Position numbers and translations under genes: made by a program
The notes under the pieces: generated by a model
The model's input: the letters and a program-made list of their open reading frames with translations, nothing else
Databases searched by the model: none
What the model was told of the DNA's origin: nothing
Part shown: piece after piece, positions 13,820 through 48,156 of the stretch
Position numbering within the stretch: position 1 is the stretch's first letter
Layout of the letters: each line of letters starts with the position of its first letter
DNA from: Cenarchaeum sp.
GTDB taxonomy: Archaea; Thermoproteota; Nitrososphaeria; Nitrososphaerales; Nitrosopumilaceae
Reading direction: 5' to 3'
Assembly: GCA_963693095.2 (NCBI GenBank)
Contig: OY843768.1
Span: forward strand, 128,001-192,000
DNA length: 64,000 nucleotides

Positions 13820-14919
13820 TACTGCCGATCAAAAGTCCGTGCCGCATTCCAGCGACGTCCGGCCCAGGTATGCCATCACGTCGAGCCGGTACCTCGTGTG
13901 CCTGAAGTGCCGTGACACCGCCGTCCGCATATCCACCATGGTGGGGTAGTGCTCGGAGACCAGCAGCGCCCGCTTTGCCTGCCGCCACACCTCCTCGATC
14001 GCGTTGAGGTACGGCGAGCCGGTGGGCAGCTCGATCAGCCTCACCGCCCTGTGGGCGCGAAGATAGTCCTTCACCGCCGCGGCCCTGTGCTGCGGCGCCC
14101 TGTCGACGATCACGGCGACCCTGCCGAACTTCCTGTGCATGTCGCGCAGGAACGCGACAAACGTCTCCGCATCGAACCTGTCGTGCACCCGGAAGATCTG
14201 CTTCCCGTCAGTGGAGATCGCGCCGTACACCACGACCCTCCTGTGTCCCCCGGTGTACGGGGCGACGACGGGGACGCCCACGCGCGACCAGTACTTTGAT
14301 CCGTCGGCTGCGCCGTGCACGGCGATGGTCTCGTCCTGCACCACGATGGTGAATCCCGCGCGCCTGAGGCGCCTTATCTCGCGCCGCACCCGGCGCCGCC
14401 AGCCGGCGACAGTCGGCCCGTCGGCCCTGTTCACGTGCACCAGGCGCGTCCGCTTGGCGGAGAGGCCGGCCCTGCGCATTATTTTCCTGACGTGCGACAT
14501 GTGGAACCTCACGCCGGTGGCCCGCTCGATCTCCAGCATGACCTCTGCGGGCGTGACGCGCCCGGGCATTCGGCCAATCAGGCGGCCAAGCTTCTGCCGC
14601 GCGACCAGCGGCGGCCTGCCGGGGCGGGGGCGGTCCCGCAGGGCCTCGACACCGCCACTCCGGTAGCGCGCGACCCACTTGCCGACCCACCTGGGGCACT
14701 GCACGAGCGCAAGTGCGACCTCCTCGCGCGTCATCCCCAGGTTCTCGTGCATGTTGACCGCGGCAAACCTGTACCTGACGTCGCCGTCCCTCTCGTCGCG
14801 GAGTGCCCTGCGGAACGCTTCCAGCTCTTGGCCTTCCATGCGGGGCGTGGGGAGGGGCGATCCATATAGCATGCGGGTCGGGAAAGTTTGATCATGGCAC
14901 GAACTTTTGCTCGTCAGTA
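13820..14919 (-). mobile_element. IS630-family insertion sequence, about 1100 bp
   Basis: Imperfect TIRs TACTGCCGATCAAAAGTCCGTGCC and the reverse complement of TACTGACGAGCAAAAGTTCGTGCC; flanked by a TA duplication that restores a CTAG target. Confidence 0.92.
13829..14872 (-). CDS. IS630 transposase (intact single ORF)
   Basis: HTH with RPRPGRPP; DDE triad QDE / VDRAPQH / SPYLNAIEEVW; start placed at the first ATG inside the TIRs. Confidence 0.93.
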   Translation of the reverse strand: MLYGSPLPTPRMEGQELEAFRRALRDERDGDVRYRFAAVNMHENLGMTREEVALALVQCPRWVGKWVARYRSGGVEALRDRPRPGRPPLVARQKLGRLIGRMPGRVTPAEVMLEIERATGVRFHMSHVRKIMRRAGLSAKRTRLVHVNRADGPTVAGWRRRVRREIRRLRRAGFTIVVQDETIAVHGAADGSKYWSRVGVPVVAPYTGGHRRVVVYGAISTDGKQIFRVHDRFDAETFVAFLRDMHRKFGRVAVIVDRAPQHRAAAVKDYLRAHRAVRLIELPTGSPYLNAIEEVWRQAKRALLVSEHYPTMVDMRTAVSRHFRHTRYRLDVMAYLGRTSLECGTDF

Positions 14920-15050
14920 TAGCTCTTATCCTCAAACTCTTCCGGGAGCTCGGCTATGTATCATAGTCTGAGAGGGATATGCCTACGGCTGGAACGCTTA
15001 TCACGACGATCTATCCCTGATATTTCAGTAGATTGGATGTGTAATGTTTT

Positions 15051-17759
15051 TTATCGATCAGCATACTTTTTGATTATGATGTGAACATCATCTGGATCAT
15101 ACGCTACGTCCCACTCCCATTTACCAAACCTACCATCTGCATTCACTGTTTCAATCCATTCTTTCAATGCATCGTGTTTTTTTGTAGTTTGTTCATTATG
15201 TTGTCCTTTAATCTCTAAAATTAACGTGACGTTATTTTCTAGCTGGACAAGATAATCAGGATTATAATCATGAATCTCTCCTTTAAATTGATATTTCACA
15301 TTGAATCCAGATATGTAGTTTTTTACCCATGAGATGACTCTTTCATTTTTGTCTAATTCTTTGCTAGCTTGCTCTTCCCATTTATTATCGCATGGGCTAG
15401 GATTAATATGTGATTTTGTTGCGTTGACAACTTTTTTTGTAGTGTACCATGCTTGCATATCGTTAGTTGATTTTTGTTGTTTTGTGTTGCCAAAAATTAT
15501 TTTTTTATATTTTGTGTTATCAGCTCGTATGAAATCATGTATGTATATGACAATAGTTTTCATGTTGAACATGATCGCTAATTGTTTTCTTATTTTTAAC
15601 TTATCAGTTAAATTTAAAAATTTAATTTTATCTAATTCGATAAATTTCTCAACAATTTTAACAATTTGAAAAAAAAGATAGTTCTTATTTCCTGACCATT
15701 CTGGGATTGTTATATGATCATAAATATCACTTACAGTCTGGAAAATTATTGTTTGCATTCGTAATTTGTTGTAGGATTTCTGCAATGTTATCTCTGAAGC
15801 ACGACTAATGTCTAATTTTGAATCTAGCATTGGGGCTACGTGTATAGTTGTGGTGACTTTTGATCTAATCCTCAATGTTGAAACTTTTTTCCAGTTGATT
15901 TTTAAAACTGGTGTGATTATGGTTTCGATTCTAGCTATGTTTGGCCAGCTTATCTCGTGTTGAATATTGATTGGATCACACGCTATGCGTGTTTTCGTCT
16001 TTTCCTTTCGAATCTTACCTGGTGTGTTCTCATGTGGCAGAAATGAAAACGGTACTCCGAGTATATTGACATATTCTTTATCTAACAAACCAGTTTCAGG
16101 ATCTATTTCATATGATAAGCGGCGTAAACCTCTGCCTACCACTTGTTCACATAAAAGTTGACTAGTAAATGCACGTAACCCCATTATGTGAGTGACATTT
16201 TTTGCATCCCATCCTTCAGACAGCATTTGTACTGCAATAATATTCATTATTTGTTCTCCGGGTTTATCTTTTTGACCCACCGTGTTGATTATTTCACGAA
16301 TGGCATCAGTTTTAGCAGATTGTTTTTCCCCACGTTCAGATTTTAAAACACTTGTATCTATACGACACATTCTATTTTCATCTGCCAGTTCCCCAAATTT
16401 ATATATACTATTCTTAAAAAAATGTACTACTCTGGCTGATGTATGTACACTATTACACACAGTAATCATTACTGGGATTATATTTGATTTTTTCAGCTCT
16501 TTTCGTTTCATCGCCCAATCATTTCCGAGTAATATGTATGCATTACGGACTAAATCGGGTAGTGTCGTTTCGGGTTTTTTTGCGCCTTTTAGATCGCTTT
16601 TTACTTTATCATTGTCGTATATATGATAATATTTGGAACGATCTCCATACTTGAGTGATTTGCCATCATCACCTGCAGGCATACGTGGAGTTTTTACAAG
16701 GCCAGATTCTATAGCATCGTTAAGTGAAAAATCAGAAATTATCCATTTGAATAAAATATCATCGTTTGGCTTATTTTTGCTTGGAATAAACGGCGTAGCT
16801 GTAAAATCAAAGCATGTGACAATAGTTCGTGCTCTATCTAATTTATCAAGTCCTTCGATCCATAATGTGGCCATCATCTCATCCATGTTTGATTCAAAGT
16901 CTGATTGTTCTTCATAGTCATTTTTAAGTTTTCTCCAAGCATGATGTGCTTCATCATTTATCACTATTATGTTATCATAATTATGCTCCAAAATCCTTTT
17001 CGCGAATGCTTCATCGCTTTCAACTCCTCTACGAACCACACTATGAGGTTGATCTTCTGCTGGTTTCAGCGTGTGCCAATTATGAATTTTTAATTTCCCA
17101 TGTCTTAGATTTTCATACATTGAATCTGGTATTATCGAATAAAGATGGTAATAACTGTTTTCTTGATCAGGTGGCCATAGCACTTGCAGTCGTGATTTTA
17201 CAGTAAGTCCTGGAGCAACAACCACAATGTGTTTTGAAAATCTTTTATCTTGTGGGTATGACACTTTGTTTAATATTTGCCATGCGATTACCATTGCCAT
17301 TACTACTGTTTTCCCTGTCCCCGTTGCCATTTTTGAACACAATCTTTTGAACAGTCCACCATCAGTGCCTAGCCCGAGTTCCTTTTTTTCTGATTCGGGA
17401 GACTCTATCATCCAAATTATTGTTTCTATAGCTTCTAATTGACAAAAGAAAAAACGATGTGCTTGACGCATAGATGGATCGTTCCAAAACTCTAGGAGTT
17501 GCCTTGTTATTCCTGTGACCCCGGGATAACCTTTGTCTCTCCATCGATCTACTCGCTCTCTTATGATATTTACAGATTGTATAGGATAAAATGCGCCAGG
17601 ATCATCAATAGAATTGTTTTCTGGAGATGCAATTATGTATCCTGCTGGCCTCCTTTTTCCAACAATGCGTTCGGGCTTGCGTGTCTCGAGATTAAACTTC
17701 CAGTACTCTTTAGGTTTTTCATACGGGTTGCATATTATCAATTGATCGATTTCGTCCAA
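15051..17759 (-). CDS. res: Type III restriction enzyme Res subunit
   Basis: KMATGTGKT, NDEAHH, TATP, LSEGWD and QVVGRGLR motifs; C-terminal PD..EIKG nuclease motif. Confidence 0.93.
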   Translation of the reverse strand: MDEIDQLIICNPYEKPKEYWKFNLETRKPERIVGKRRPAGYIIASPENNSIDDPGAFYPIQSVNIIRERVDRWRDKGYPGVTGITRQLLEFWNDPSMRQAHRFFFCQLEAIETIIWMIESPESEKKELGLGTDGGLFKRLCSKMATGTGKTVVMAMVIAWQILNKVSYPQDKRFSKHIVVVAPGLTVKSRLQVLWPPDQENSYYHLYSIIPDSMYENLRHGKLKIHNWHTLKPAEDQPHSVVRRGVESDEAFAKRILEHNYDNIIVINDEAHHAWRKLKNDYEEQSDFESNMDEMMATLWIEGLDKLDRARTIVTCFDFTATPFIPSKNKPNDDILFKWIISDFSLNDAIESGLVKTPRMPAGDDGKSLKYGDRSKYYHIYDNDKVKSDLKGAKKPETTLPDLVRNAYILLGNDWAMKRKELKKSNIIPVMITVCNSVHTSARVVHFFKNSIYKFGELADENRMCRIDTSVLKSERGEKQSAKTDAIREIINTVGQKDKPGEQIMNIIAVQMLSEGWDAKNVTHIMGLRAFTSQLLCEQVVGRGLRRLSYEIDPETGLLDKEYVNILGVPFSFLPHENTPGKIRKEKTKTRIACDPINIQHEISWPNIARIETIITPVLKINWKKVSTLRIRSKVTTTIHVAPMLDSKLDISRASEITLQKSYNKLRMQTIIFQTVSDIYDHITIPEWSGNKNYLFFQIVKIVEKFIELDKIKFLNLTDKLKIRKQLAIMFNMKTIVIYIHDFIRADNTKYKKIIFGNTKQQKSTNDMQAWYTTKKVVNATKSHINPSPCDNKWEEQASKELDKNERVISWVKNYISGFNVKYQFKGEIHDYNPDYLVQLENNVTLILEIKGQHNEQTTKKHDALKEWIETVNADGRFGKWEWDVAYDPDDVHIIIKKYADR

Positions 17760-17762
17760 ATC

Positions 17763-20335
17763 TCATGGCTCCATAATTCGTAATGTTTCTATTCCTCTGT
17801 CATCAATTATTTTAACTGCAATTTTTTTATTTGTTCCCAATTTAAACGGTATAGATAATATTCCTGAATATTTCTCCAACAAATATTCTTCAACATATGG
17901 TTTTAATGTTTTTGCTATTTTATTCCATGAGCTTTGTACATCCAACATTGGAAAAAATACTTGTTGTGGGTATATGCTTCGCCCATCATAATCTGTATCT
18001 AACATCCACATAGCAATACGCGTTGGATCGCCGGGTTCAACCTTATTTGTTATTGTATTGTAATAATCAAACTCCTTAACCATTACTTCCCATTCATTTT
18101 TTTTCTTTTTAAGCTCCACGTCAGGTTGACCTATTAACATGAATGATTCATTTTTTATTTGTTTATTTTTTAAATCACTCGTAAACAAATCGCCATTTAT
18201 CTGAGCTTTTAATATTACAATACCGGGCCATCTGAGTTCGTCTATGTCTTTTGCTGCTTCGGGATCAAACTGCAACGCTGCAAAAATCACCATTGCGGGT
18301 TTTTCGCCTAATTTACGAACCTCTTGTATCGCATTTTCAACCTGACGTTGTTCAAGAGGTGTATGTGCTGATCCAAACGATATTAAAACAGTTTTTGTTT
18401 CCTTTTCGTTTGTTTTAGCTTTTGCATGTAACCACCTGGTTGTTGGATGTGGATCTACACTTAGAAATTTTATTTTTTGCTTGTTTTTACCAACAATTCC
18501 AGTTTTTAACAGCTCTTGGCGCCAATCAGACTGTCTTTTACTTTCGTTGTTTTCTAGATCTGATTCTTTATATTGATTAACATACATTAGATCTAATGAC
18601 TTGGACGTTGGTGATGGTACTGCCTCTACTGTGAACGGGCCTGATACTCTCGTCTTTGACGAATCTTTGTCTGGACAATCGTACAAAATTACATTGTTGG
18701 GTTCTTCATCATGTGATATTGATTTTTGAGTTATTTGTTGTATTTTTTTATATGAAAATCCAGCATCAATACCTTGGCCGGGGTTTTCTAATTTATAATA
18801 TTTATAAGTCGCAGTCATTAATCTTCTTTTTGTTAATGCAATTGCCACGCGTGATGTGTCACATGTAATCCAACGTCTCCCAAATTCTTCTGCTACGAAT
18901 GCGGTTGTCCCAGATCCGCAAGTAGGATCTAATATGAGATCACCTGGATCGCTAGTCATCAATATGAATCGACGAATTACTTTAGCTGTGGTTTGAACAA
19001 CATATATCTTGTTTTCAAATCCCCCACTACTTGTGTCATCCCACATATTCTGGAGTTCGGCGTATTCAAAATCATTGAAATAGCGCACATATGATAACCT
19101 GTTACCATTTTTCATAATTCGATTTTTTGTGATCAAGTATTTCATGCCTTTAAGTGATGCCTTCCAATGACTATGCTGACCAGGTGTGAACACTTCACCG
19201 TCAAATATGAGAGAATCGTCACTCTTTGACTTGCCCGGAGATGTTGTGGCAGCAAGCCTATAAATTTTTGATTCTGATGGTATGCTAAGTGGGTTATCTC
19301 TTTGCTCCTTTGTCATTCTTATACGTTCGCCCTCTTTTAATTCTAAATATTTGTAATTCGGATCGTTGATGGGCAATTCTTTTTTTGTATACAGTTTGTG
19401 AGATTTTAACAGTTTTTTATTTTTTGCATACCATACAATATAATCAAACACCACTGAAATATGCGTACTTGTAGAATTTGATGTTTTTCTAAATGAGATC
19501 ACGCTTACAAAATTCTCATACCCAAACACTTCATCCATTATTATGCGTACATAATGCAAATTATCATCAGAAATTTGTACCCCACAACTTCCAGTTTCAT
19601 TTAATAGCTCTTTTGCTAAAATTAACCGATCGCGCAAGTATCCCAAGTATGAATGAATTCCATGCTTCCATGTGTCTCTAAATGCTGTCACCATTTCTGG
19701 TTCCTGTGTGAGATCATCATCATTACGATCTTTAACATTCATTTTATTTACAAACGGTTGAAAGTTTGACTTATATTCAATACCGTATGGCGGATCTATG
19801 TATATTGTTTGAATTTTTCCTGCAAAATTTTCTTTTTGTAATAGGGAGTTCATAACTAACAGAGAATCTCCGGCAATTAATCGATTTGACCAATTATGTG
19901 AATGTTGATAAAATTGCAATGCTTCTCGTAACGGAAGATTGTATTCATCATGATCAAAATGAAGGGTAATTTTTTGTTGGATGTGAGTCTCTGGCTTCAG
20001 AATTTTATCAATAATTGTTATAGGATCAATACGTTCATGTTGATGTAGCGACACTGTATCGATTTCAAAATTTCCATCTTTTTGCTTCTCAAACCAGACT
20101 AATACCGGGTCTAAATGAGGGTCATATTCGTATTTGGTTGGATCATGATCACGATCTGTGTTGGGATCAACAAGCCCTACGGGTGGGTTATTTGGTCGTG
20201 CGCTACTGTGATAATACTGCTGAATGCGTTCTCGTAGCTTGGGTTCTGACTTTGATGCTTTTGTGGCTTTATTTTTTGACTTTTTGCTGGGGGGGGGGGT
20301 CGTCGTGTTCCTATTTTCGTTTTAGTCAACGGCAT
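17763..20335 (-). CDS. mod: Type III DNA methyltransferase Mod, frameshifted at a C11 tract (putatively phase-variable)
   Basis: IYIDPPYG and DPTCGSGTT motifs; the frame stays open upstream of the 20054 GTG (YYH..RPNNPPVGLV..YEYDPHLDP) as far as the poly-C; the ATG at 20335 is in frame only with C9 or C12. Confidence 0.88.
20289..20299. repeat. G11/C11 homopolymer tract in the 5' coding region of mod
   Basis: Eleven consecutive G on the + strand inside an AT-rich island. Confidence 0.9.
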
Positions 20336-23613: not shown

Positions 23614-24372
23614 GTGGCCTTTGAGAAGGCCATCGCAGCAGTGGCGACTGACGCAATGCGTTTTGTGAATGCCGGCGATACCATTGGACTTGGAAGCGGA
23701 AGGGCCGCGACTGCGTTCGTGCGCGCACTAGGCAAGCGCGTCGTGACCGACGGCCTTGACGTGCGCGGCATACCCACGTCGATGCAGATACGCCTAGTCG
23801 CCGAGGACGCCGGCGTGCCGCTCATCGACGCCGGCCAGGCCGCCTCGATAGACGCCGCCTTTGACGGGGCCGACCAGATAGACGCGCGCGGCAACATGGT
23901 AAAGGGCGGCGGCGGGGCGCTCTTGCGCGAAAAGATACTCATCTCGGCGGCGCGGCGCGTCATCATCATGGCAGATCGCACAAAGTTCTCGCGCCACCTC
24001 TCGATTCCAGTCCCCGTCGAGGTTCACGCGTCTGCGCGCTCGCATGTGGCATCGCGCGTGGAAAGACTCGGCGGAGCGCCGTCGATCAGGCGCGACGCGC
24101 GCGGCTATCCGGCGTTCACCGAGAACGGCAACATTGTCCTAGAGTGTGACTTTGGGACAGTGCGCGAGCCTGCCACACTGGAGCGCTCGCTGGGCCACAT
24201 CGCCGGCGTCATGGAGTCGGGCCTCTTTACGTCGCGCACGGCCGCAATATACAAGGCCGGTCCGCGCGGCGCCTTTGAGGTCACTGGAGCGGCGAGACGA
24301 GGCGCCCGTGCCCCGCCGGCCCGACGACCTCTGAGCCGTCGGCGACAAGCACGCCGCGCACAATCGTCTTGA
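23614..24372 (+). CDS. rpiA: Ribose-5-phosphate isomerase A
   Basis: IGLGSG, DGADQ, KGGGGALLREKI and TENGN motifs. Confidence 0.96.
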   Translation: MAFEKAIAAVATDAMRFVNAGDTIGLGSGRAATAFVRALGKRVVTDGLDVRGIPTSMQIRLVAEDAGVPLIDAGQAASIDAAFDGADQIDARGNMVKGGGGALLREKILISAARRVIIMADRTKFSRHLSIPVPVEVHASARSHVASRVERLGGAPSIRRDARGYPAFTENGNIVLECDFGTVREPATLERSLGHIAGVMESGLFTSRTAAIYKAGPRGAFEVTGAARRGARAPPARRPLSRRRQARRAQSS

Positions 24373-25669
24373 CGGGCCAGCCCTTTAGCGACATCCCGTC
24401 ATAGACGCTATAGTCAGAGTGGCCGCCAAACATGGCGTGGTCGAGCCTTCGCTCTAGGCGCGTGTCTATTATGGCGATATCTGCGTCGAATCCGGCCTCG
24501 ATTGGGCCCTTTTGCGGCGAGAGCGCAAATATGCGCTCGGCGTTTGCGCTAGTCAGCTCGGCGAGGCGGTTCAGCGTGAGCCTTCCGCGGTTGAGTCCCT
24601 CGCTCAGCAAAAGCGGGAGCGATGCGCCAATGCCGGGAAATCCGGCAAGCGCGCCCCACACGTCGCTGCCTGCGAGCTTTGCGTCGCGCGTGTTGGCGAC
24701 GTGGTCGGTCCCTATCGTGTCTATCTCGCCTTTTGCGATGGCGTTCCAGACGGCATCAACGTCAGACTGCGAGCGCACCGGTGGCATGACCTTTGCGAGG
24801 TATCCATCGCGGCCCTCGTGCGAGAGCGCAAGATAGTGCGGGCACGTCTCGACATGTATGCGCGTCCCGCGCGACCTCTCGAGGCGGATCTGCTCGAGCG
24901 CGCGCGCCGAGCCCACATGCACAAAGTACATCGTGCAGCCGTGGCGCCTTGCCATCTCGCAGACGCGCGCAATTGCTGCGGCCTCGTACTCGGGCGAGCG
25001 GCTCTCTGACCACGCGCGCAGGCCGTCGTTGCCGGCCGCACGCGACTCGCGCATCGAGCACGCGCATGACTCATAGTCCTCGGCATGAACGCAGACTGGC
25101 AGGCCGGTCCGCGAGGCCTTTTTGACCACCTTGTCGACTAGCGCGTCGGTGACCTCGACGTCGGCCATCTGTGGTGCGCCGGCCCCGGGATCGAGATCCA
25201 TGTGAACGTGGCCAATCTCGCCGCCGAGGTTCATGTAGACCTTGAAGGACGATATTCCGGTGACTGCCGTCTCGTACATCTCCTCGGCCTGCGCGTCATT
25301 GAATATCGAGGCGTGGACTCCATAGTCGATGTGGTGGGCCTTTGCGCTCGCCTCGAGCTGGGGGCCAAGTGAGCTCGAATAGGGGTCGACCCTGCGCAGC
25401 ATGCGCATCATTGTCGTCACGCCGCCGATGGCAGCAGCATGCGACTCGGTCGCCGCAGCCCTGTCTATGGGCGTGTACACGCCATAGTGGACGTGCGTGT
25501 CTATGGCGCCCGGAAGCGAGACTAGGCCGTCGGCCCTAATGCGCGTCTCGCACGCCGGCTCGTCGGCCGTGACTGCGGTGACCTTGCCGCCGTCTATGAC
25601 GATGTTGCGGTCCATGACGCCCTTTGGCGTGATGACGTGCGAGCCCGTTATGACCATGTCGTGTGCCAC
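24281..25669 (-). CDS. Dihydroorotase/hydantoinase-family cyclic amidohydrolase
   Basis: LPGAIDTHVH, GGVTT, VHAE, ETCPHYL, PPVR and IGTDH motifs. Confidence 0.88.
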   Translation of the reverse strand: MAHDMVITGSHVITPKGVMDRNIVIDGGKVTAVTADEPACETRIRADGLVSLPGAIDTHVHYGVYTPIDRAAATESHAAAIGGVTTMMRMLRRVDPYSSSLGPQLEASAKAHHIDYGVHASIFNDAQAEEMYETAVTGISSFKVYMNLGGEIGHVHMDLDPGAGAPQMADVEVTDALVDKVVKKASRTGLPVCVHAEDYESCACSMRESRAAGNDGLRAWSESRSPEYEAAAIARVCEMARRHGCTMYFVHVGSARALEQIRLERSRGTRIHVETCPHYLALSHEGRDGYLAKVMPPVRSQSDVDAVWNAIAKGEIDTIGTDHVANTRDAKLAGSDVWGALAGFPGIGASLPLLLSEGLNRGRLTLNRLAELTSANAERIFALSPQKGPIEAGFDADIAIIDTRLERRLDHAMFGGHSDYSVYDGMSLKGWPVKTIVRGVLVADGSEVVGPAGHGRLVSPLQ

Positions 25670-25839
25670 TGTGGCGCCCGCCTGCGCCTGCGTCTCTATA
25701 TTCCTTTTAGGCCGTGGGCGCGCCTGTGGGGCGCCCTGCGGCTTTTGTGCCTAATTCCCCGCCACGGGTGGCGATTGGGCACAGTTGCAATGGCAATCTT
25801 CATATAATGTTGGTATATGCCATCCCGCCGTTGGAATTC

Positions 25840-26001
25840 ATGGTGACAAGAAGGATTGTAAGCGGCGGACGGTCTGCTAGGCGTGGTGTCGGTGCCGTGC
25901 GCGCAGGCGAGGCCGTGTATGGCCGCCACGTCAAGGCGTGGCGCGCCATAGCGGACAGGGCGCTGGCCAAAATAGGCTGCACGGCGGGGGCGAGGCCCTA
26001 A
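25840..26001 (+). CDS. Small hypothetical protein B1 (RHVKAWR motif)
   Basis: TATA-like sequence about 25 bp upstream; stop overlaps the next ATG (TAATG). Confidence 0.55.
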   Translation: MVTRRIVSGGRSARRGVGAVRAGEAVYGRHVKAWRAIADRALAKIGCTAGARP

Positions 26002-26249
26002 TGACCGAGACGATCACGCGCAGGCGCCCGCGGGTCACGTACCATCCCGACCAGGTGAGGCGCGGCAAGGACATACTCGCCTCGATGCCCGAGAAGGAGC
26101 GCGAGTGGTACCTCGCCAAGGTCAGGGACGGCACGTTCACGCTCGCCGAGACGCATGGTATGCTCGCCGTGGGCGAGTCCATGAGGCTCGGCCGCGAGGA
26201 GGGCACAAGGCGCCGCAACGTGCGCGTGGGCCTGGAGGCGCTGTCCTGA
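26001..26249 (+). CDS. Small hypothetical protein A1 (paralogue family)
   Basis: RPRVTY..DQVRRGK.I...M...EREWY...GLEALS; similar to 26877..27113. Confidence 0.75.
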   Translation: MTETITRRRPRVTYHPDQVRRGKDILASMPEKEREWYLAKVRDGTFTLAETHGMLAVGESMRLGREEGTRRRNVRVGLEALS

Positions 26250-26398
26250 TGGCCGCAAAGCTGGCGCGCGTGTGCTCGCACTGCCACGGCACCAGGCACG
26301 GTGAGTCAGTGGGCACGCTCAAGGGCGGCTTTCACTGGGTGCATCATATGTGCCTGACCGGCTACCTCACCGACCACCCGGAGGCGGTCGAGACGTGA
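26249..26398 (+). CDS. Small Cys/His-rich (Zn-finger-like) protein Z1
   Basis: CSHC...HWVHHMC; TGATG and GTGA coupling to its neighbours. Confidence 0.65.
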   Translation: MAAKLARVCSHCHGTRHGESVGTLKGGFHWVHHMCLTGYLTDHPEAVET

Positions 26399-26646
26399 CC
26401 CACCTGCCACCCACCACCAGGGAGAGGAATTTCCCCAGGGTAAAGTGGCCCGAGCAGGACCCCGAGGCCGTGAGGCGCGGCAGGGAGGTGCTCGCGCGAC
26501 TGCCGCCCGAGGAGCGCGAGGGGATCATCGATGACGCCAGGACAAACGGCGAGCCCGAGGACGTGATGCTCGCCTCGCTGTACGCCGCGTCCCGCCTGCA
26601 CGAGGCGCTCAACCCCGGCGAGGCCGGGCGGGAGGCCAAGCAATGA
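26395..26646 (+). CDS. Small hypothetical protein A2 (divergent paralogue)
   Basis: FPRVKW..DPEAVRRGREVLARLPPEERE; GTGA/ATGA coupling. Confidence 0.7.
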   Translation: MTHLPPTTRERNFPRVKWPEQDPEAVRRGREVLARLPPEEREGIIDDARTNGEPEDVMLASLYAASRLHEALNPGEAGREAKQ

Positions 26647-26876
26647 CCAACGGCGCCGAGTCCGTGGAGGAGCTGAACCCAAAGCTCGTCCCCGTCAGGG
26701 GCGACGACGACCTCATCGGTGGCGAGGGCACCGCCATGCACCACCGGTGCAGGATATATGGCTGCAGCTCAACGTGGCCGGTCGGCGACGCAAAGGCTTA
26801 CGACATCATCTACGGCCGGTGGTGGTGCCAGTCGCACGTGCCGGGCGCAGAGCACACCAGGGAGGTGTTGCACTAG
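26643..26876 (+). CDS. Small Cys/His-rich (Zn-finger-like) protein Z2
   Basis: CRIYGC...WWCQSH; translationally coupled. Confidence 0.65.
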   Translation: MTNGAESVEELNPKLVPVRGDDDLIGGEGTAMHHRCRIYGCSSTWPVGDAKAYDIIYGRWWCQSHVPGAEHTREVLH

Positions 26877-27113
26877 ATGGCGGGAACGGCGCAGGTGCGC
26901 CAAAGGCCACGGATCATATACGACTCCGACGTGGTGAGGCACGGCAAGGCCATCTTTGACAGGATGACCGATGATGAGCAGGAGTGGTACCGTCGCAGCC
27001 TCGCCCATGGCCTCACGCTCGACGACGTGTACGGCTCACTCGCCGTGACCGAGGCCATAGCCCGCGGCAACGCGGGACGCAGCGTGCGCGAGGGTCTGGA
27101 GGCGATCTCCTGA
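26877..27113 (+). CDS. Small hypothetical protein A3 (paralogue family)
   Basis: RPRIIY..DVVRHGK.I...M...EQEWY...GLEAIS. Confidence 0.75.
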   Translation: MAGTAQVRQRPRIIYDSDVVRHGKAIFDRMTDDEQEWYRRSLAHGLTLDDVYGSLAVTEAIARGNAGRSVREGLEAIS

Positions 27114-27114
27114 C

Positions 27115-27336
27115 ATGGTGAACTGCAACTGTGGCAACGGTTCGGCTCCGCACAAGGTGTGGTGCGCCATCCGCGCCGGACAGCGCGAGAGGCGTGTGAC
27201 GCAGGCAGTGCGTCCCGAGAAAAAGATGACAAAGGCGCAAAAGCGGCTCGCAGACCATGACCGGCACGTCAAGGCGTGGCGCGAGGTAGTCGAGAGGGTG
27301 CGCAACAACCTGGACAGCAATGCAGAAAAGTCCTAG
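27115..27336 (+). CDS. Small hypothetical protein B2 (CNC..H..WC plus RHVKAWR)
   Basis: Starts 1 bp after the A3 stop; shares a motif with B1. Confidence 0.65.
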   Translation: MVNCNCGNGSAPHKVWCAIRAGQRERRVTQAVRPEKKMTKAQKRLADHDRHVKAWREVVERVRNNLDSNAEKS

Positions 27337-27471
27337 ACGGCCATCATGGCCAGCCTGCGTGATTGACTGCCTGTCAGATCACCGCGAGGCCAAAAAGGAC
27401 GAAACGGGGGCGAGAATGTCGCCCCATGCGCGCGCCCAAGATCGCAGACATGACAACAGTGATATAATCAT

Positions 27472-28068
27472 GTGAGACTCTGTGGCCTGTTGAATAAAAC
27501 ACGTGCCGATCCATTATCCGTCCCAGAGTCACTCCTTGCCGCCTCCATGCGCAATGTGCCGCATCGGGGCGCGTTGCCCCTCACTCCGGATATCTTTCCG
27601 CCGATCCCTCAGAGCCGCCCCAAGAAGATCCGCAAAAAGTCAGCCTTGCCAACACCTGACATCGCCTCGTCTATCCTTGCCGCCTCCATGCGCAATGTGC
27701 CGCATCGGGGCGTCCCTCCGTTCACGGTAGCCTCGTATATGTCACGGCAGCAGCACCCCTCTGGGAATCTGCCTGGTAAACCAATGGTGCCCTCCTCACG
27801 CTTTGACACGGTGGACACTAGCACGGCAAACTCCGTGTCCATTGAGGAATCGCATGGGCGAGGCCGCGTCGCGGCCAATTCGTTCTCCAAGGGAATCGTT
27901 TTCCTGATCGCCGCGGCGCTTTTCATCTATCTGGTCTACCGTAAATACCGCCGTCATCGTGTAGAACGTCAAAAACGCCGTGAGCTGAGCATTCTCAAGA
28001 ACGAGCGCCGTGCAGGACGCCAAGAGCTCAAAACGCGCAAATCAAAGAGCCGCAAACAGCGGAAATGA
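27472..28068 (+). CDS. Hypothetical membrane protein with basic C-terminal tail
   Basis: Single TM (GIVFLIAAALFIYLVY) followed by a K/R-rich tail; start uncertain. Confidence 0.5.
   Translation: MRLCGLLNKTRADPLSVPESLLAASMRNVPHRGALPLTPDIFPPIPQSRPKKIRKKSALPTPDIASSILAASMRNVPHRGVPPFTVASYMSRQQHPSGNLPGKPMVPSSRFDTVDTSTANSVSIEESHGRGRVAANSFSKGIVFLIAAALFIYLVYRKYRRHRVERQKRRELSILKNERRAGRQELKTRKSKSRKQRK
27533..27712 (+). repeat. 39-bp direct repeat TCCTTGCCGCCTCCATGCGCAATGTGCCGCATCGGGGCG, two copies
   Basis: Identical copies at 27533-27571 and 27674-27712; degenerate core near 28429-28450. Confidence 0.85.
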
Positions 28069-28129
28069 CGGCAATGCCACCGTATGCAACGCGCCCTTGC
28101 CAATCACCCTGGTGCGGCGCACGCACCCT

Positions 28130-28414
28130 ATGTTCGCGGCTGGATGGTTGCATTTGAGCTATCATTGGGGCGCGCCGGTACAGGATCACCCTGTAACATC
28201 GTACATATGGGAAGAGTTTTTCTGGGTCACGTTTGATGTCACGACATGGCTGATCCTCCTCATCGTCGTTGGGATCAGCGCGCGATTTGTGCGGATCAGT
28301 GTGCGCGAGCGCCGCGTGTCCGAGGGCACAGAGGACATTTCACGGGGAATGGAAGAGAACATTCGCGACATTCTGCGCGAGACCTATCTGTTCCTGTTTC
28401 CGTGGACCAGATGA
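28130..28414 (+). CDS. Small hypothetical membrane protein
   Basis: TM segment TWLILLIVVGISA within ORF 28010..28414; start uncertain. Confidence 0.45.
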   Translation: MFAAGWLHLSYHWGAPVQDHPVTSYIWEEFFWVTFDVTTWLILLIVVGISARFVRISVRERRVSEGTEDISRGMEENIRDILRETYLFLFPWTR

Positions 28415-28453
28415 CGCCGGCGCCCTGCTGCGCAATGTGGCGCACCGCGCGCA

Positions 28454-29392
28454 CTAGGTGATGATGACTGCTGACATGGCGGGGTCAATGGATGCCCCCA
28501 TGGCATAGCGCGCGCCAATCCTGCACTCGCCGCCACTGTTGCCAATGATGACCTCTAGGGTGCTCAGTGCCACGCTGACCGAGCCCCTTGCGGCAACGAG
28601 CACGCTGTCCCAGCCCGTGCCCGCCGCGTCCCCAAACGCGGGGCTCACCACCACGCTCACCCCGTCGACCTCCATCTCTCCGGCCCACAGGTCATTGCTG
28701 TCAAACAGCAGCCTTGCCTGCCTTGGGGAGGCCACGCAGAACAGCCCGTGCGGAAACCTCGTGCCGTGGTTGGCGTCAGCTATTGCCCGTGCGGCCCTTA
28801 GGACATCGGCGCCCTCTAGCGCGCCGCTCTCGCCGACATCACGGGTTCTCCTCTTGTCGTCCATGCGCAGCGTCCTTGCGAGCATTGGCCCGTCTGAGCG
28901 AATCAGGCTGGAGCGAACCGCGCGCTCGACGTCGAGGAGAACCTCGTCACGTATGGACGCGAGCATGTCGCGCGCCACGTTGGAGCCGTCCTCAGCCAGG
29001 GCATCCTGGCTGACATTGTGCCATATGCCCTCCTGCACGGAGAACTCGGTCTCCACGACACGGTGCGTCCTCGTGCCGGCCTTGACCCCGAGCGCCTCGC
29101 GCGTCCTGTGCGGGGCACCGAGGGCTATGCGACCATGCGTTCCGTCGGCGTTCACGCCCACCTCAGTCACGCTGGCATGGTCGATCACCGAGTCGCGTGC
29201 CGTGGGCATTATGCGCCCAATGGGAACCTGCCACGAGACGGCGCCTCCCTCGCCGAGCTCCCCGGCCCCATCGCCGAGTATGCCCCTGACGGCAGGCCAC
29301 ATGGGCTCGCCGCTCCTGAACGCGCCTGTGATCGAGTAGCATATTGCGTCCCATCCTGCGCTACTGTCATCCTGTCCCTCCATTGCGGACAC
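28454..29392 (-). CDS. Putative HK97-fold capsid-like protein
   Basis: 312 aa; VSQDALAED..NV..DM...IRDEV..DVERA (spine-helix-like), DVLRAARAI..AN..LFCVASPRQ..LL, DGVSVVVS and C-terminal RY.MGA.IDP...AVI pattern. Confidence 0.55.
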   Translation of the reverse strand: MSAMEGQDDSSAGWDAICYSITGAFRSGEPMWPAVRGILGDGAGELGEGGAVSWQVPIGRIMPTARDSVIDHASVTEVGVNADGTHGRIALGAPHRTREALGVKAGTRTHRVVETEFSVQEGIWHNVSQDALAEDGSNVARDMLASIRDEVLLDVERAVRSSLIRSDGPMLARTLRMDDKRRTRDVGESGALEGADVLRAARAIADANHGTRFPHGLFCVASPRQARLLFDSNDLWAGEMEVDGVSVVVSPAFGDAAGTGWDSVLVAARGSVSVALSTLEVIIGNSGGECRIGARYAMGASIDPAMSAVIIT

Positions 29393-29498
29393 TGCGCACG
29401 GGGCATATTTGAACCATGGCCGCAGCTCTGGCGCGCAACGCCGTGCGCACGATGCGGGGTAAATGGTTAAAAGAAGCGCACCCTCGCCGGCTGCGCAC

Positions 29499-29573
29499 GG
29501 GCCAGTGGTTTAGTGGTATAATGCCGCGTTCGCAACGCGGAAGTCAGGGGTTCAATTCCCCTCTGGTCCACCA
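29499..29573 (+). tRNA. tRNA-Ala(CGC)
   Basis: GGGCCAG/CTGGTCC acceptor stem, anticodon arm CCGCG-TTCGCAA-CGCGG, GGTTCAATTCC T-loop, encoded CCA. Confidence 0.95.
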
Positions 29574-29585
29574 CATGATCTACGC

Positions 29586-30983
29586 CTAGGCGCCGGCTGC
29601 GCACCTGTTCGGACCGGCCTCGAGGTCGGGGATCATTGCGGGGTTTAGCGGCATCGAGCCGCGATTGAAGCGGATTATCATCGAATAGTTTGGCGGCTTT
29701 GGCGGGATCGATGCCGTCACCCTCTTGACAAACTCTGCCCTCTCGGCACCATAGAGCTCGCCTGACTTTAGCGCACCGACGCCGATGCCGTACGAGCCGT
29801 CTGGCGACGGCGTGGCGTCCTCTGACCTGTGTGACGGGAGTATGAGCGTGCCCTCGGGCAGCGCGCCGAGCCTCGAGTGGATTGTGTCATGCAGCTCGCC
29901 GGCGGCGGACTCGGCGTCCTCGTGGAGGTCAGGCCTCCCGACACCGCCGGCAAACGCCGTGTCGCCGCAGAACGCAAGGCTTTCGGTGACATATGCCATG
30001 CTGCCCGGCGTGTGGCCCGGCACGCGCATCGCGCGCAGCTCGCCCTCGCCAAACCGTATCGCATCACCGTCGCCAATGCGCTCGCACTCTATGTCGTATT
30101 TCTCGCCGGCGCTAAGGTAGAGCTTTGCGCCAGTCGATGCCGCAAGCTCCCTTGATGCCGATATGTGGTCTGCGTGGCAGTGCGTGTCGGCGACTGCGAC
30201 GATCTCGGCTCCGGCGTCAGCGGCAATCCTCGCGTACGCGCCGACGGGGTGCACTGCGTCGATGACTGCGGCCTTGGCCCCGCTTGCGACAATGTACGAG
30301 AGGCAGCCCTTGCCGACCTTTTCGACCTGGATGACCTCCACGCTGCCACTCGATATCTTTTTGGGGACAAGAACCTGGCTCCAGCCGGCCATGCCGCCGT
30401 CAAGTGACGTCGACTCTATGCCGTTTCGCGCAAGCGCAAACGTGGCGACCATTGAGCGGTTGCCATGCGAGCATATCGTGACGACCTTTTTGTCCCTCGG
30501 TATGGCATCACACGCGCCCTTTTCAAAGAGCTTTGCCAGCGGCACGTTGACTGCGCCGTCGATCATGTGGGCCGCGCACTCGTCAGGCTCCCTGACATCG
30601 AGGAGAAACACGTCACTGCGGCTCTGCCAGAGCTCGTCACCGGAGATGAGCGGGCTGTGCGAGCCCTTTACGGTCTGGCCTGCCCAGCCGGCCATGCCGC
30701 CCTCGAGGTGGTGCGCGTCGATGCCAAACTGGGCCATCATGCCGGCGTTGCGAGACGACTCTGCCCCGTCGGCGTCGATGAGGACCACCTTTGAGCCGCG
30801 CGGCATCTTTGCCATGATGATCTGCTTTTGCTGCATCGAGCCGCAGCGCGCGTTGGCCGCGCCCCTCACGTGGCCGGCCACATAGTCGTCAGCAGGCCGC
30901 ATGTCGAGTATCATCGTGCCGTCGCCTGCGGCGATGATCGACTCTAGGTCGCCTGCGCTGATTCCCGTGCCCATTGCGGGCAT
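29586..30983 (-). CDS. Double rhodanese plus MBL-fold hydrolase (persulfide dioxygenase-like) fusion
   Basis: LDMRP..Y..GH, LDVREP..E, ICSHGNRS, THCHADH and PGHTPGS motifs. Confidence 0.9.
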   Translation of the reverse strand: MPAMGTGISAGDLESIIAAGDGTMILDMRPADDYVAGHVRGAANARCGSMQQKQIIMAKMPRGSKVVLIDADGAESSRNAGMMAQFGIDAHHLEGGMAGWAGQTVKGSHSPLISGDELWQSRSDVFLLDVREPDECAAHMIDGAVNVPLAKLFEKGACDAIPRDKKVVTICSHGNRSMVATFALARNGIESTSLDGGMAGWSQVLVPKKISSGSVEVIQVEKVGKGCLSYIVASGAKAAVIDAVHPVGAYARIAADAGAEIVAVADTHCHADHISASRELAASTGAKLYLSAGEKYDIECERIGDGDAIRFGEGELRAMRVPGHTPGSMAYVTESLAFCGDTAFAGGVGRPDLHEDAESAAGELHDTIHSRLGALPEGTLILPSHRSEDATPSPDGSYGIGVGALKSGELYGAERAEFVKRVTASIPPKPPNYSMIIRFNRGSMPLNPAMIPDLEAGPNRCAAGA

Positions 30984-39797: not shown

Positions 39798-40355
39798 ATG
39801 AAGCCATACAAGGCAATACTGCTGACACTGCACGCCAACGAGGACCTGAGCAACGGTTCTGGTGCCGGCGATATGCCGATCAACCGCACCGCAATGCAAA
39901 AGCTCGTCTATCTCGAGTCACAAAAGCGCCTCTGCGATGCCTCGTACCGCGCCCACTATTACGGACCATATAGCGAGGACGTAGCCGAAGGGCTCATGAC
40001 GCTGTGGGCATTCGGGTATGTGAGAGAAGATGCGCCCAACTATGACACTAGGGCATATACCTACACTCTAGAGTCCGGAGGCCGTAGACTTGGAAAAAAG
40101 CTTGCGTCTGGCGAGCACGATAAAGAGTACGCGGTCATCCGCTCCATCGTGAACACTTGTAGAACACAATGTTCGCTGCAGCAGATAAAACTCTCCCGTG
40201 CTGCTAAAATCCACTATCTGCAAAACGAGCATAAAATGCGTACTCACGACCCTGCAAAATTTGTGACTCTTGGAAAACAGCTTGGCTGGGAATTAAAAAA
40301 GAGAGATATCGGTGCTGGTTTAAAGCTTCTTCAAGCTTTGGGTCTTGCCAACTAG
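39798..40355 (+). CDS. YwgA-like / DUF4065-like winged-helix protein
   Basis: RTAMQKLVYL...YRAHYYGPYSEDV...GYVRE...Y.YTL pattern. Confidence 0.65.
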   Translation: MKPYKAILLTLHANEDLSNGSGAGDMPINRTAMQKLVYLESQKRLCDASYRAHYYGPYSEDVAEGLMTLWAFGYVREDAPNYDTRAYTYTLESGGRRLGKKLASGEHDKEYAVIRSIVNTCRTQCSLQQIKLSRAAKIHYLQNEHKMRTHDPAKFVTLGKQLGWELKKRDIGAGLKLLQALGLAN

Positions 40356-41637
40356 AGACTTTGCATTCAAGTCGATTCGTGATCCGATTTATGGTTATAT
40401 TGGTGTGTCTGAAACTGAATATAATCTGATAAACACCAAAGTTTTTCGACGACTTCACCACATTAAGCAGCTGTCACATTCATACCTAGTGTATCCTTCA
40501 GCAACACATACGAGATATGAGCATTCACTAGGAACTATGCACATGGCCAGCAAGATGTATGACAGAGTTGAATTCGACAATTCGTACAAAAATAAAAATT
40601 ATGAAGAATACAAGGAGTTTGTTCGAATCGCTGCATTGCTCCATGATATTGGCCATGGTCCATTTTCACACACATATGAATCGGTTCTTTCACACATAAA
40701 TCCCGACATGTCCCAAATACATGAAGAGATCGGCATGGAGTTAATTAAAAATGATGGAGAGATCAATGATCACCTTGGGAAAACCAAACATGAGATCGCC
40801 CACATTCTGGAGGGGACAGGGCGCCCGAATCGAAAATACCCACTATTGTCATCAATCGTTTCAGGCAACCTTGACGCAGACAAGCTTGACTATTTCGCAC
40901 GAGATTCATATCACTTAGGTGTCAAATATGGGGTGGTAGACACTGATCGAATACTGCACGTCCTTCGAAAGGATCGCACCGGAAAGCATATTGGCGTCCA
41001 TCTGAAGGGTAATCACGTCCTAAACAGCTACCGAATGGCGAGATATCTGATCGCGACTCAAATCTACTCCCATCACACACGTCTTGCCGCTGACCAGATG
41101 TTTATTGCGGCCTCCAAGATCGCCTTTGATGACGAACACGTGCTTGACAGAGATGATTTCACATTTGGTTCAAAATCTTTTCTACAATGCCACACAAACC
41201 TTGATGATTCGTCATTTGTGCACATGATTATGTCACATGATAATGCCAACGTATCTAAGTTAATACTTGCTAACATTCAGCAGAGACGCCTGCTCAAACC
41301 TTGCCTCACATTGCCGTCGAAAACCCTCAAAGATGGCACGGTAAAAGACCAGATCCTTGACACTAAAACAATTCTTGATGATGCTTCTACGCAGATCAGA
41401 AAAAGCCTCCATCTTGCCCCACACGAGCTCATAGTCTACAAATCCGACATTCCCATAAAGCTGTTCAACAAGTCTGATATAATGATCCTTGATGATGAGG
41501 GAAAAGAACCCGATACTGCTCCAATATCCCCGATTCAGGCTGACTTGGGAATTCTCAACTATTACGTCTTTGGCATAGCCAAGAAACGTTCGCAAATTCG
41601 AGAAAAATTTGTTAAAATGGTGCCATTTTCCCAATGA
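40345..41637 (+). CDS. HD-domain dNTP triphosphohydrolase-like protein (SAMHD1/YwfO family)
   Basis: IRDPIYGYI, FRRL..IKQL...YPSATHTRYEHSLG, ALLHDIGHGPFSH, LDADKLDY..RDSY and IYSH motifs. Confidence 0.92.
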   Translation: MPTRDFAFKSIRDPIYGYIGVSETEYNLINTKVFRRLHHIKQLSHSYLVYPSATHTRYEHSLGTMHMASKMYDRVEFDNSYKNKNYEEYKEFVRIAALLHDIGHGPFSHTYESVLSHINPDMSQIHEEIGMELIKNDGEINDHLGKTKHEIAHILEGTGRPNRKYPLLSSIVSGNLDADKLDYFARDSYHLGVKYGVVDTDRILHVLRKDRTGKHIGVHLKGNHVLNSYRMARYLIATQIYSHHTRLAADQMFIAASKIAFDDEHVLDRDDFTFGSKSFLQCHTNLDDSSFVHMIMSHDNANVSKLILANIQQRRLLKPCLTLPSKTLKDGTVKDQILDTKTILDDASTQIRKSLHLAPHELIVYKSDIPIKLFNKSDIMILDDEGKEPDTAPISPIQADLGILNYYVFGIAKKRSQIREKFVKMVPFSQ

Positions 41638-41798
41638 TCAGGTACTTCAGACGTTGCATTTTGTGACCTTGTGACAACAGGAACATAAACTGGAGTATTC
41701 CTAGCTTCGCTTGCCATATCATTTTTCTACGTACGTCGCGCATACAGCCCTGCCTGTTGTTCGTGAGCTGCAAGTCAATAACTTGCTTGGTTCATACG

Positions 41799-48054: not shown

Positions 48055-48156
48055 GCGGGTATCCTGCCTACTATTTTTGCCATGTCACAGCGTTAGCTGC
48101 GATCATGGCCTGTCGGCGTGTCCTGCGATCAGGGCAGATCGGCGCGCCTGCGCCTA

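Follow-up and report, generated by a model that had tools for sequence, protein, structure and literature searches.

What are seven very small, tightly packed open reading frames (ORFs) doing next to a tRNA gene in an archaeal genome, and are they genes at all? The question is raised by a stretch of 64,000 nucleotides (nt) from Cenarchaeum sp. (contig OY843768.1, positions 128,001 to 192,000 of the forward strand), which was analyzed as a whole and is hereafter called the window. It is archaeal, encoding an archaeal AmoA, a thermosome subunit and the ribosomal proteins S3Ae and L31e, and its host genome (G000) measures 2.0 Mb at ~63% G+C. Between 25840 and 27336 it carries an array of seven plus-strand ORFs of 49-83 amino acids (aa) each, in the order B1-A1-Z1-A2-Z2-A3-B2, where A and B denote two sets of paralogues and Z two Cys/His-rich peptides (Table 1). 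Neighbouring ORFs overlap by 1-4 nt or stand 0-1 nt apart, and the junctions read, in order, TAATG, TGATG, GTGA, ATGA, TAG|ATG and TGAcATG; the seven ORFs and six junctions given in a preliminary description of the locus were all found in the sequence. A single frameshifted gene broken into seven pieces is ruled out by the different frames, by the individual starts and GGAGG sites, and by the completeness of A1 to A3 as paralogues. The seven genes are real, as judged from paralogy, translation signals and selection on B1 and B2, and they reside in an insertion that is polymorphic and narrowly distributed. As for their nature, the explanation that we find best, at somewhat less than an even chance, is that they form an accessory block, probably derived from a mobile element, that codes for small nucleic-acid-binding proteins and whose modules are exchanged independently of one another.

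Since GC-rich DNA yields long spurious ORFs on the antisense strand (122, 125 and 119 aa in the array region), coding was tested directly. Such frames speak for the notion that the seven ORFs might be non-functional, being either chance open frames or decaying remnants in GC-rich DNA, and so does the codon score of B1, the weakest of the array. Nonetheless, a codon log-odds score trained on the 24 host genes of the window was the highest of all six frames in the proposed frame for seven of the seven ORFs. Its values ranged from 0.14 to 0.58 (B1 0.14, A1 0.58, Z1 0.37, A2 0.43, Z2 0.48, A3 0.41), the reference being 0.50 +/- 0.20 for true-frame chunks of host genes and -0.67 for wrong frames, and the G+C content at third codon positions (GC3) of the array ORFs was 0.72-0.94. 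The translation signals also point to genuine genes. A perfect GGAGG starts 12-17 nt upstream of five of the six internal starts, as against a window background of 1.0-1.5% of all positions, and the motif occurs eight times on the plus strand of the array and never on the minus strand. The corresponding binomial P is ~4e-9 if the sites are independent, a figure that is overstated because the sites before Z1 and B2 sit in paralogous 3' ends of A genes. All these sites are made up of the last codons of the preceding genes (...GLEA.., ..PEA.., ..REA.., ..REV..).

No GGAGG precedes the start of B1; a TATA-like box is found there, and among 20 host starts examined in the window the best A/T-rich 8-mer lies at -32 to -35 in seven. 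In the usual archaeal operon a leaderless first cistron is followed by internal cistrons led by Shine-Dalgarno sequences. We interpret the box as the putative promoter of a leaderless or short-leader operon and predict a single transcript across the array. The seven genes would then form one polycistronic operon, in which B1 is probably leaderless and the internal cistrons would be translated from the GGAGG embedded in the 3' end of the gene before them.

The paralogy of A1, A2 and A3 proposed in the preliminary description is significant (E 3e-17 to 8e-7). A1 and A3 are 43% identical over their full length (E 3e-17), and A2, which has the N-terminal half in common with the other A proteins and a different C-terminus, matches A1 at E 3e-7 and A3 at E 8e-7. 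B1 and B2 are likewise related (E 3e-6) and have a 45-nt DNA repeat in common that is 80% identical; B1 keeps the helix containing RHVKAWR and is devoid of the Cys-rich N-terminus of B2. Taken together, the A and B paralogues maintain protein-level similarity at 24-43% identity. On its own, A2 also gave a sub-threshold Pfam match to GPP34 (E 2.8e-4; 21.5 bits against a cut-off of 29.1; residues 13-82 on profile positions 116-176), which was taken as noise, being below the cut-off and absent from other A members.

Selection could be gauged by comparing the host genome with its congener G004, bearing in mind that difference counts are low for such small genes. The ratio of nonsynonymous to synonymous substitution rates (dN/dS) is 0.13 for B1 (8 of 11 differences at third codon positions) and 0.12 for B2 (16 of 26), both within the range of 0.05-0.30 seen in three flanking core genes; on this sequence comparison, B1 and B2 are under purifying selection. 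A1 is 70.5% identical to the A protein of G004, with a dN/dS of ~1.0 and differences spread 14/14/14 by codon position, in a comparison that includes a replaced 5' segment of ~50 nt. The G004 protein does not owe its divergent N-terminus to a compensated frameshift, an idea that is ruled out because the DNA there is unlike that of the window. The ratio for A1 is the remaining argument for non-functional ORFs. Against them stand the frame preference of the whole array, the GGAGG sites, the protein-level similarity of the paralogues, the dN/dS of ~0.12 of the B genes and the retention of the putative Zn ligands of Z2 in a relative of 57% identity, so that this possibility seems hardly credible.

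If the genes are real, how did they come to lie where they do? In the congener G003, the start of the amidohydrolase gene and the tRNA-Ala gene are ~85 nt apart on one contig, whereas 3.8 kb lie between them in the window; because the G003 site is empty, the intervening segment of the window is an insertion. In G004, a 1.1-kb insert at the same site holds B1'-A'-B2' only, followed by ~390 nt and the tRNA gene, with synteny on both sides (90.9% identity on the left, 97.2% on the right). The same position in G002 is occupied by an unrelated gene (G002:C170 3-1190, minus strand) whose product, 396 aa or longer, has a HATPase_c_3 domain of the GHKL ATPase type; PADLOC gave no match for it. The G001 contig ends at the insertion site.

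The array proteins have an extremely narrow distribution. None of them matched Pfam, PHROGs, NCBIfam or PADLOC above threshold, in agreement with the earlier failure to recognize a described family. Profile searches with the A family, which the preliminary description had called for, returned own-genus relatives only: matches in 2 of 61 related genomes (the host genome and G004), itself and P0002 (89% identity) in a set of 5.8 billion proteins, and P0005 (an A member of 84 aa) and P0006 (identical to A2) in a representative set of 1.84 billion. Four giant proteins (P0007-P0010; E 3e-8 to 4e-4, with 3-6 short stretches each) were set aside as repeat or low-complexity matches. The B profile matched 3 of 301 genomes of the family, namely the host genome, G004 and, weakly, G003, the last being discounted for its weakness and its three stops; outside these genomes P0004 was the sole relative. 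A single relative, P0012, was found for Z2; neither Z1 nor Z2 was detected in the four congeners G001-G004. No pattern match was confirmed for the A profile in genome_contigs (0 of 123) or for the B profile in metagenome_contigs (0 of 27), a degenerate DNA pattern for the Z2 core had no matches in metagenome_contigs, and ESM Atlas gave no usable match for A1 and B2. Judging from these sequence libraries, the families A, B, Z1 and Z2 appear to have no relatives outside the genus. We found no description of a comparable array in the literature, although the supplementary tables of PMC6563490, which lay outside the search, could list an element at this tRNA gene.

Such a lineage-specific distribution could also mean that the micro-proteins belong to the host, having been born or fixed in the genus at a recombination-prone spot without any connection to mobile elements, and that they serve as small zinc-finger and helical regulators of host physiology, in the manner of the zinc-finger micro-proteins and the small ribbon-helix-helix (RHH) regulator CdrS of haloarchaea. 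Several observations are consistent with this idea: the array uses codons much as the host does, its GC3 exceeding even the host mean; viral collections hold no relatives; purifying selection on B1 and B2 is about as strong as on host genes; at least two species of the genus carry the core, and three more ENA contigs do as well; and small zinc-finger and RHH regulators of host genes are documented in haloarchaea, as far as the parts consulted of PMC10716476, PMC2253796 and PMC8406309 go. On the other hand, the site is empty in G003 and taken by an unrelated ATPase gene in G002, searches of the 300 other genomes of the family failed to find B in 298, co-occurring lineages carry the genes in reshuffled order, and a gene of HK97 fold has been inserted alongside. 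An empty, alternatively occupied or reshuffled site, the narrow spread of B and the HK97-fold insertion all amount to the behaviour of accessory genes, and we hold host ownership to be rather improbable.

The reshuffling is best seen in metagenome contigs from DNA runs of two studies, which were matched at 80% likeness and thus represent other lineages and not the same strain. One set of contigs joins 26251 to 27120, an 868-nt skip that corresponds to the B1-A-B2 form (depth 75 in run X1, 401 in X4 and 7 in X5). Another joins 26393 to 27148 with 64 other letters, placing a Z1-like gene before a B-like gene (depth 121, 333 and 8 in X1, X4 and X5), and a further record returns from 26844 to 26245 across 9 letters, giving a Z2-like followed by a Z1-like gene (depth 109 in X1 and 360 in X4). 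In X4 only, 26074 is connected to 27078 through 139 other letters on one contig, again giving B1-A-B2, here with a P0005-like A. A weaker joint (side 30) connects 27326 to 29433, without the 2.1-kb right part of the insertion. A relative of Z1 at ~87% DNA identity occurs in contigs of all three runs, and the sequence of a loose end behind 27274 corresponds to the HVKVWKGIAERVS of P0004. The latter protein, which is B-like, and the Z2-like P0012 stem from one ENA contig of 48,898 nt, and no A-family protein was returned from any contig of that length; a third architecture, ...Z2'-Z1'-B3 with no A between, is apparently present, its adjacency on that contig being deduced and not directly seen. 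In all, related lineages from the same samples show three or more gene orders at this one site. The breakpoints of the variant orders all fall at gene borders. Moreover, the 3' ends of A1 and A3 have in common a 36-nt repeat (86%) whose copies are spaced 864 nt apart, a distance that matches the 868-nt skip and fits unequal recombination.

These variants bear directly on the way in which the array was originally read, that is, as a modular series of a constant partner A, each copy paired with a variable metal-binding Z peptide. The array is indeed modular; the alternation of A and Z is a feature of this genome only. In G004 the single A is flanked by B1 and B2, elsewhere a Z1-like gene leads directly to a B-like gene and, apparently, a Z2-like to a Z1-like gene with no A between, and the C-terminus of the A1-like and A3-like proteins (VR.GLEA.S) remains unchanged whatever gene follows. 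Because of these orders, including the apparent Z2'-Z1'-B3, a strict A-Z pairing is unsupported.

It seems plausible, instead, that the operon is accessory DNA at an insertion hot spot between the amidohydrolase and tRNA-Ala promoters. The starting point would have been a core of three genes, B1-A-B2, the form seen in G004, which gained cassettes and recombined unequally at gene borders. The products of the operon would most likely be small nucleic-acid-binding proteins of the kind carried in bulk by integrated archaeal mobile elements and viruses: A could be a DNA-binding dimer with a basic arm and a helical body of RHH/ParD-like shape, perhaps autoregulating the operon, and Z1, Z2 and B2 might be three unrelated zinc mini-proteins with one Cys3His site each, acting as independent, exchangeable modules and not as fixed partners of A. 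A bolder reading would see in the locus a new kind of cassette array, made up of a leaderless promoter and freely exchangeable one-gene modules whose own 3' codons each carry the ribosome-binding site of the next gene, and filled with previously unknown archaeal toxin/antitoxin or defence/anti-defence mini-proteins under diversifying selection; relatives from the same samples would exchange unrelated zinc mini-proteins and RHH-like proteins, or duplicate or lose them, at the borders between genes. We consider this reading unlikely.

What, then, do the A proteins look like? They contain no Cys. The N-terminal basic motif of A1, RRRPRVTY (R.RPR[VI].Y in the family), is conserved and unstructured in the model, and the extreme C-terminus (VR.GLEA.S) is common to A1, A3, the G004 protein, P0002 and P0005, a conservation that is partly explained by the GGAGG site embedded in the GLEA codons. 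The AlphaFold 2 (AF2) monomer model of A1 has a mean predicted local distance difference test (pLDDT) score of 79.5 and helices at residues 16-28, 31-43 and 48-81. When it was compared by VIA-align with 48,161 PDB representatives, seven of the top ten entries were titled as toxin-antitoxin complexes or antitoxins (5ceg_A, Z 5.4; 7ycs_D, 5.0; 5zgn_A, 4.8; 6xrw_D, 4.8; 7etr_B, 4.6; 7ycv_A, 4.4; 4me7_F, 4.3). RHH antitoxin entries occupy ranks 1, 2, 4, 5, 6, 7 and 9 with Z of 4.3-5.4, the matched chains being presumably the RHH antitoxin chains of these complexes. The modelled shape of A thus weakly resembles that of RHH/ParD antitoxins and offers a lead; membership in the RHH family is unsupported by sequence, and DNA binding by A is a prediction.

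The resemblance to known type II antitoxins with an RHH domain (ParD, PrpA, KacA and the B. subtilis MazE type) extends to a length of ~80 aa, a basic N-terminal segment, two short helices followed by a long C-terminal one, and a position as first gene in overlapping pairs. It stops short at the lack of any sequence or profile match, at Z values of 5.4 at most and at the unmodelled N-terminal strand, and A differs further in having no recognizable toxin partner and no conserved neighbour. Nevertheless, the array might be composed of tandem pairs akin to type II toxin-antitoxin systems, with A as RHH/ParD-like antitoxin and autorepressor, Z1, Z2 or B2 as small zinc-binding toxin of a new family and B1 as the stump of a lost toxin, all of it persisting by addiction or through a role in defence. 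The layout invites this reading, as an A gene of ~80 aa is followed three times by a gene of 49-77 aa (A1/Z1 at TGATG, A2/Z2 at ATGA, A3/B2 at TGAcATG), and it would be in keeping with the type II antitoxins, each an RHH domain with a C-terminal helix, that are the best structural neighbours of the A model, with the patchy distribution, the copy number varying between close relatives and the hot spot next to a tRNA gene, and with an A that evolves fast (dN/dS ~1) beside a conserved B (0.12). Yet cognate pairs are not inherited together, since the A1-like gene of G004 is followed by B2 and not by Z1; A1, A3, the G004 protein and P0005 have one common C-terminus and different neighbours; and in co-occurring lineages a Z1-like gene precedes a B-like one and, apparently, a Z2-like gene a Z1-like one with no A between. 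Moreover, Pfam, NCBIfam, PHROGs and PADLOC assign no Z or B protein to a family of toxins or defence proteins, A lacks sequence support as an RHH protein, and the 49 aa of Z1 are very few for a type II toxin. A complex prediction for A3 with B2 scored 0.02 against a mark of 0.32, which by the rule of the tool is evidence neither way. On balance, we regard tandem toxin-antitoxin pairs as a minority possibility, though the foremost among the rivals of the preferred reading.

The Cys/His-rich peptides between the A genes were correctly described as mutually dissimilar. Z1, Z2 and B2 give no BLASTP match to one another at E<=10, and their Cys plus His content reaches 20.4% in Z1, 10.4% in Z2 and 8.2% in B2 (8-20% altogether), compared with 3.7% for the 24 host genes of the window. 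Each of the three has exactly three Cys and a nearby His. The candidate ligands, which form two pairs in each peptide, are C9, C12, H29/H32/H33 and C35 in Z1 (CxxC...HHxC), C36, C41, C62 and H65 in the C-terminal core of Z2 (Cx4C...CxxH), and C4, C6, H13 and C17 in B2 (CxCx6Hx3C). In P0012, which is 57% identical to Z2 over 58 aa, the four ligands and the stretch YDIIYGRWWCQSHVP are kept, and the ligands of B2 are kept both in P0004 (69% identity) and in the B2 of G004. Hence, Z1, Z2 and B2 are plausible candidates for single-site Cys3His zinc binders. They matched no described zinc-finger family in Pfam, PHROGs or NCBIfam; the search for toxin or defence families in these libraries and in PADLOC likewise yielded nothing above cut-off for Z1, Z2, B1 or B2, and the B profile found nothing among PDB sequences. 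Assignments of B2 to DUF7365 (16.8, cut-off 27) or to an IS5 transposase model (15.4, cut-off 110) were sub-threshold and taken as noise.

Haloarchaeal zinc-finger micro-proteins (HVO_0758, the C(P)XCG class and Brz), some of which act as regulators according to the portions considered of PMC10716476 and PMC2253796, are similar in having ~70 aa or less and one predicted Zn site. They differ from Z1, Z2 and B2, whose Cys3His sets are not two C(P)XCG motifs and which are arrayed in one operon of one genus. Another parallel is offered by the integrated elements of thaumarchaea. In the portion of PMC6563490 used here, a Zn-ribbon arCOG (12 occurrences) and a CopG/RHH arCOG (9) are among the commonest genes of these elements, 39 of 68 elements target tRNA genes and 15 intergenic regions, and cryptic elements span 2.6-98 kb. 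Like those elements, as that portion portrays them, the array places tiny putative DNA-binding genes in a tRNA-adjacent or intergenic insertion of an ammonia-oxidizing archaeon, with a viral hallmark fold nearby, and its insert of 1.1-3.75 kb overlaps the low end of their size range; it differs in that no integrase, att site or replication gene was found in it.

Table 1. Position of the array, its expression signals and the other features of the insertion (coordinates refer to the window)
Feature	Position	Strand	Remarks
Amidohydrolase gene	24281-25669	-	left neighbour of array
Insertion (~3.75 kb)	25710..29458		between amidohydrolase promoter and tRNA-Ala promoter; boundaries approximate, read from alignment
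TATA-like box TTCATATAATG	25809..25819	+	31-41 nt upstream of B1 ATG; conserved in G004
B1	25840-26001	+	53 aa; shortened B2 paralogue
A1	26001-26249	+	82 aa; A family, all-helical model
GGAGG (Shine-Dalgarno-like)	26234..26238	+	15 nt upstream of Z1 ATG; encoded by conserved GLEA codons of A1 C-terminus
Z1	26249-26398	+	49 aa; Cys/His-rich
GGAGG	26380..26384	+	15 nt upstream of A2 GTG
A2	26395-26646	+	83 aa; GTG start; divergent A paralogue
GGAGG	26631..26635	+	12 nt upstream of Z2 ATG
Z2	26643-26876	+	77 aa; candidate Cys3His Zn site
GGAGG (within GGGAGGTG)	26861..26865	+	16 nt upstream of A3 ATG
A3	26877-27113	+	78 aa; A paralogue
GGAGG	27098..27102	+	17 nt upstream of B2 ATG; encoded by A3 GLEA codons
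B2	27115-27336	+	73 aa; N-terminal CxCx6Hx3C knuckle, basic linker, C-terminal helix with RHVKAWR
Two overlapping ORFs (198 aa; 134 aa)	27472-28068; 28010-28414	+	coding doubtful (codon scores -0.16, 0.03); absent from G004
44-nt direct repeat, copy 1	27528..27571	+	contains 21-nt core CATGCGCAATGTGCCGCATCG at 27546-27566
44-nt direct repeat, copy 2	27669..27712	+	95% identical; core at 27687-27707
21-nt core, copy 3	28427..28447	+	shorter copy, 2 mismatches
HK97-fold gene	28454..29392	-	312 aa; major-capsid or encapsulin-like; absent from site in G004
tRNA-Ala (CGC)	29499-29573	+	right-hand neighbour of insertion site

The remainder of the insertion, from 27344 to 29432, is absent from G004. 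Its two overlapping ORFs had no family match above cut-off in Pfam, PHROGs, NCBIfam or PADLOC, and a sub-threshold match of the longer one to OPA3 was taken as noise. The 21-nt core of the direct repeats occurs three times in the 2.0-Mb genome, always within the insertion, and a reversed control gave no copies; the repeats could be protein-binding sites or iteron-like elements. The opposite-strand gene next to the tRNA has a codon score of 0.42, and its 312-aa product has no sequence match in Pfam, PHROGs, NCBIfam or PDB. In spite of the low confidence of its AF2 model (mean pLDDT 57, predicted template modelling score 0.59), Foldseek returned 212 PDB matches at E<=0.001; those listed were all capsids of phages, archaeal viruses or gene-transfer agents, or encapsulins, of HK97 fold, the top ones being the phage DT57C capsid, the T. 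maritima encapsulin and Haloferax tailed virus 1. The likeness to these shells is at the level of fold (212 PDB chains); the neighbour differs in lacking a sequence match and any terminase, portal, protease or cargo gene beside it. Paralogues of 41-43% identity lie at G000:C1:1918036-1918935 and at G004:C1:1605844-1606761 and 1625790-1626650, giving two copies in each of these genomes, and beyond them one weak match was obtained in 301 genomes. No terminase, portal or cargo gene was recognized beside the HK97-fold copies examined, nor a micro-ORF array beside the paralogous genes elsewhere.

With a shell-like gene 1.1 kb downstream of B2 in the same insertion, the small proteins might be thought of as its cargo, scaffold or regulators, and the conserved extreme C-terminus of A1, A3, the G004 protein, P0002 and P0005 as a targeting tag. 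This is very improbable, however: G004 has B1-A-B2 without an HK97-fold gene at the site, the paralogous shell genes elsewhere do without an array, the shell gene lies on the opposite strand, and the embedded GGAGG accounts, at least partly, for the conserved GLEA codons. The weak RHH likeness of the A model and the HK97-fold gene are best treated as leads that bear on the toxin-antitoxin, anti-defence and viral early-gene options raised in the preliminary description.

A mobile-element origin and a regulatory role of the array must also be weighed against evidence to the contrary. On the side of function, VIA-align Z values of 5.4 or less may reflect merely a common helical arrangement, as those below ~8 can, and the N-terminal strand of the RHH fold is not seen in the A1 monomer model. 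Foldseek with that model gave nothing at E<=0.001 in PDB and BFVD, the Pfam RHH families did not match any of five A members even at E<=10, an alignment of six A members scored a probability of 1.5% in hhalign against 27 RHH_1 domains from related archaea, and the A profile retrieved no RHH protein or antitoxin among PDB sequences. In addition, the dN/dS of ~1.0 of A1 and its replaced 5' segment would fit relaxed or diversifying selection better than a conserved regulator. On the side of origin, no integrase or transposase domain was detected by Pfam or NCBIfam in any ORF of 25.7-29.5 kb, and no att repeat or target-site duplication was found there; direct repeats bracketing 25710 and 29458 are likewise missing. 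In the viral_contigs of IMG/VR, no pattern match was confirmed for the A (0 of 334), B (0 of 103) or HK97-like (0 of 71) profiles, and these families have no PHROGs match. Because of these absences from IMG/VR and PHROGs, it is only the context that argues for a viral or mobile-element origin. The preliminary description had named a match to the early region of a described provirus as refuting it; the array does not map to any described provirus in the collections searched. The retention of B1-A-B2 in at least two species at ordinary divergence would be unusual for the debris of a decayed element, and the failure to find an integrase, an att site or viral relatives, combined with purifying selection on B in two species, argues against a simple integrated element. 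A block derived from a mobile element, with modules exchanged independently, is nonetheless the reading that we tentatively retain, with both the origin and the regulatory role as proposals.

Other parts of the window show features of their own. The tRNA-Ala gene is bracketed by a 16-nt direct repeat (88%; 29483-29498 and 29589-29604) that is present in G004 too. The nearest DDE transposase gene (DDE_3, 13829-14935) is outside the insertion and adjoins a 5-kb island (15051-20054) of 32-37% G+C in a genome of ~63%, which contains a ResIII helicase-type gene (902 aa) and an N6_N4 DNA methylase gene (763 aa) and looks like an acquired restriction-modification island. Another stretch of low G+C (40001-42000, 44-46%) separates the gene for S3Ae from that for seryl-tRNA synthetase; in it lie an HD-domain gene (40345-41637) and an unassigned ORF of 187 aa. 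Immediately after the archaeal amoA gene (48105-48842) come a gene for a D12-class N6-adenine DNA methyltransferase (48968-49822) and a tRNA-Thr gene (49824-49898, minus strand).

Archaeal genomes, and those of ammonia oxidizers in particular, harbour many unannotated micro-genes that are missed by gene callers and family libraries. The operon analyzed here provides unusually good in silico support for the reality of seven genes of 49-83 aa, and it constitutes a natural experiment, in which related lineages from the same samples have the genes of one site in three orders or more. What appears to be new, on the evidence of sequence comparison, is that four orphan families of small proteins are brought together in one self-contained cassette operon with translational coupling, and that the operon differs from lineage to lineage within the same samples. 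Should the products be no more than ordinary small regulators, remnants of a decayed element, the locus would be of local interest. If they were DNA-binding or toxin-like, A, B, Z1 and Z2 would represent four new families, and the operon would offer a compact model for the shuffling of small accessory genes in archaea with few recognizable mobile elements.

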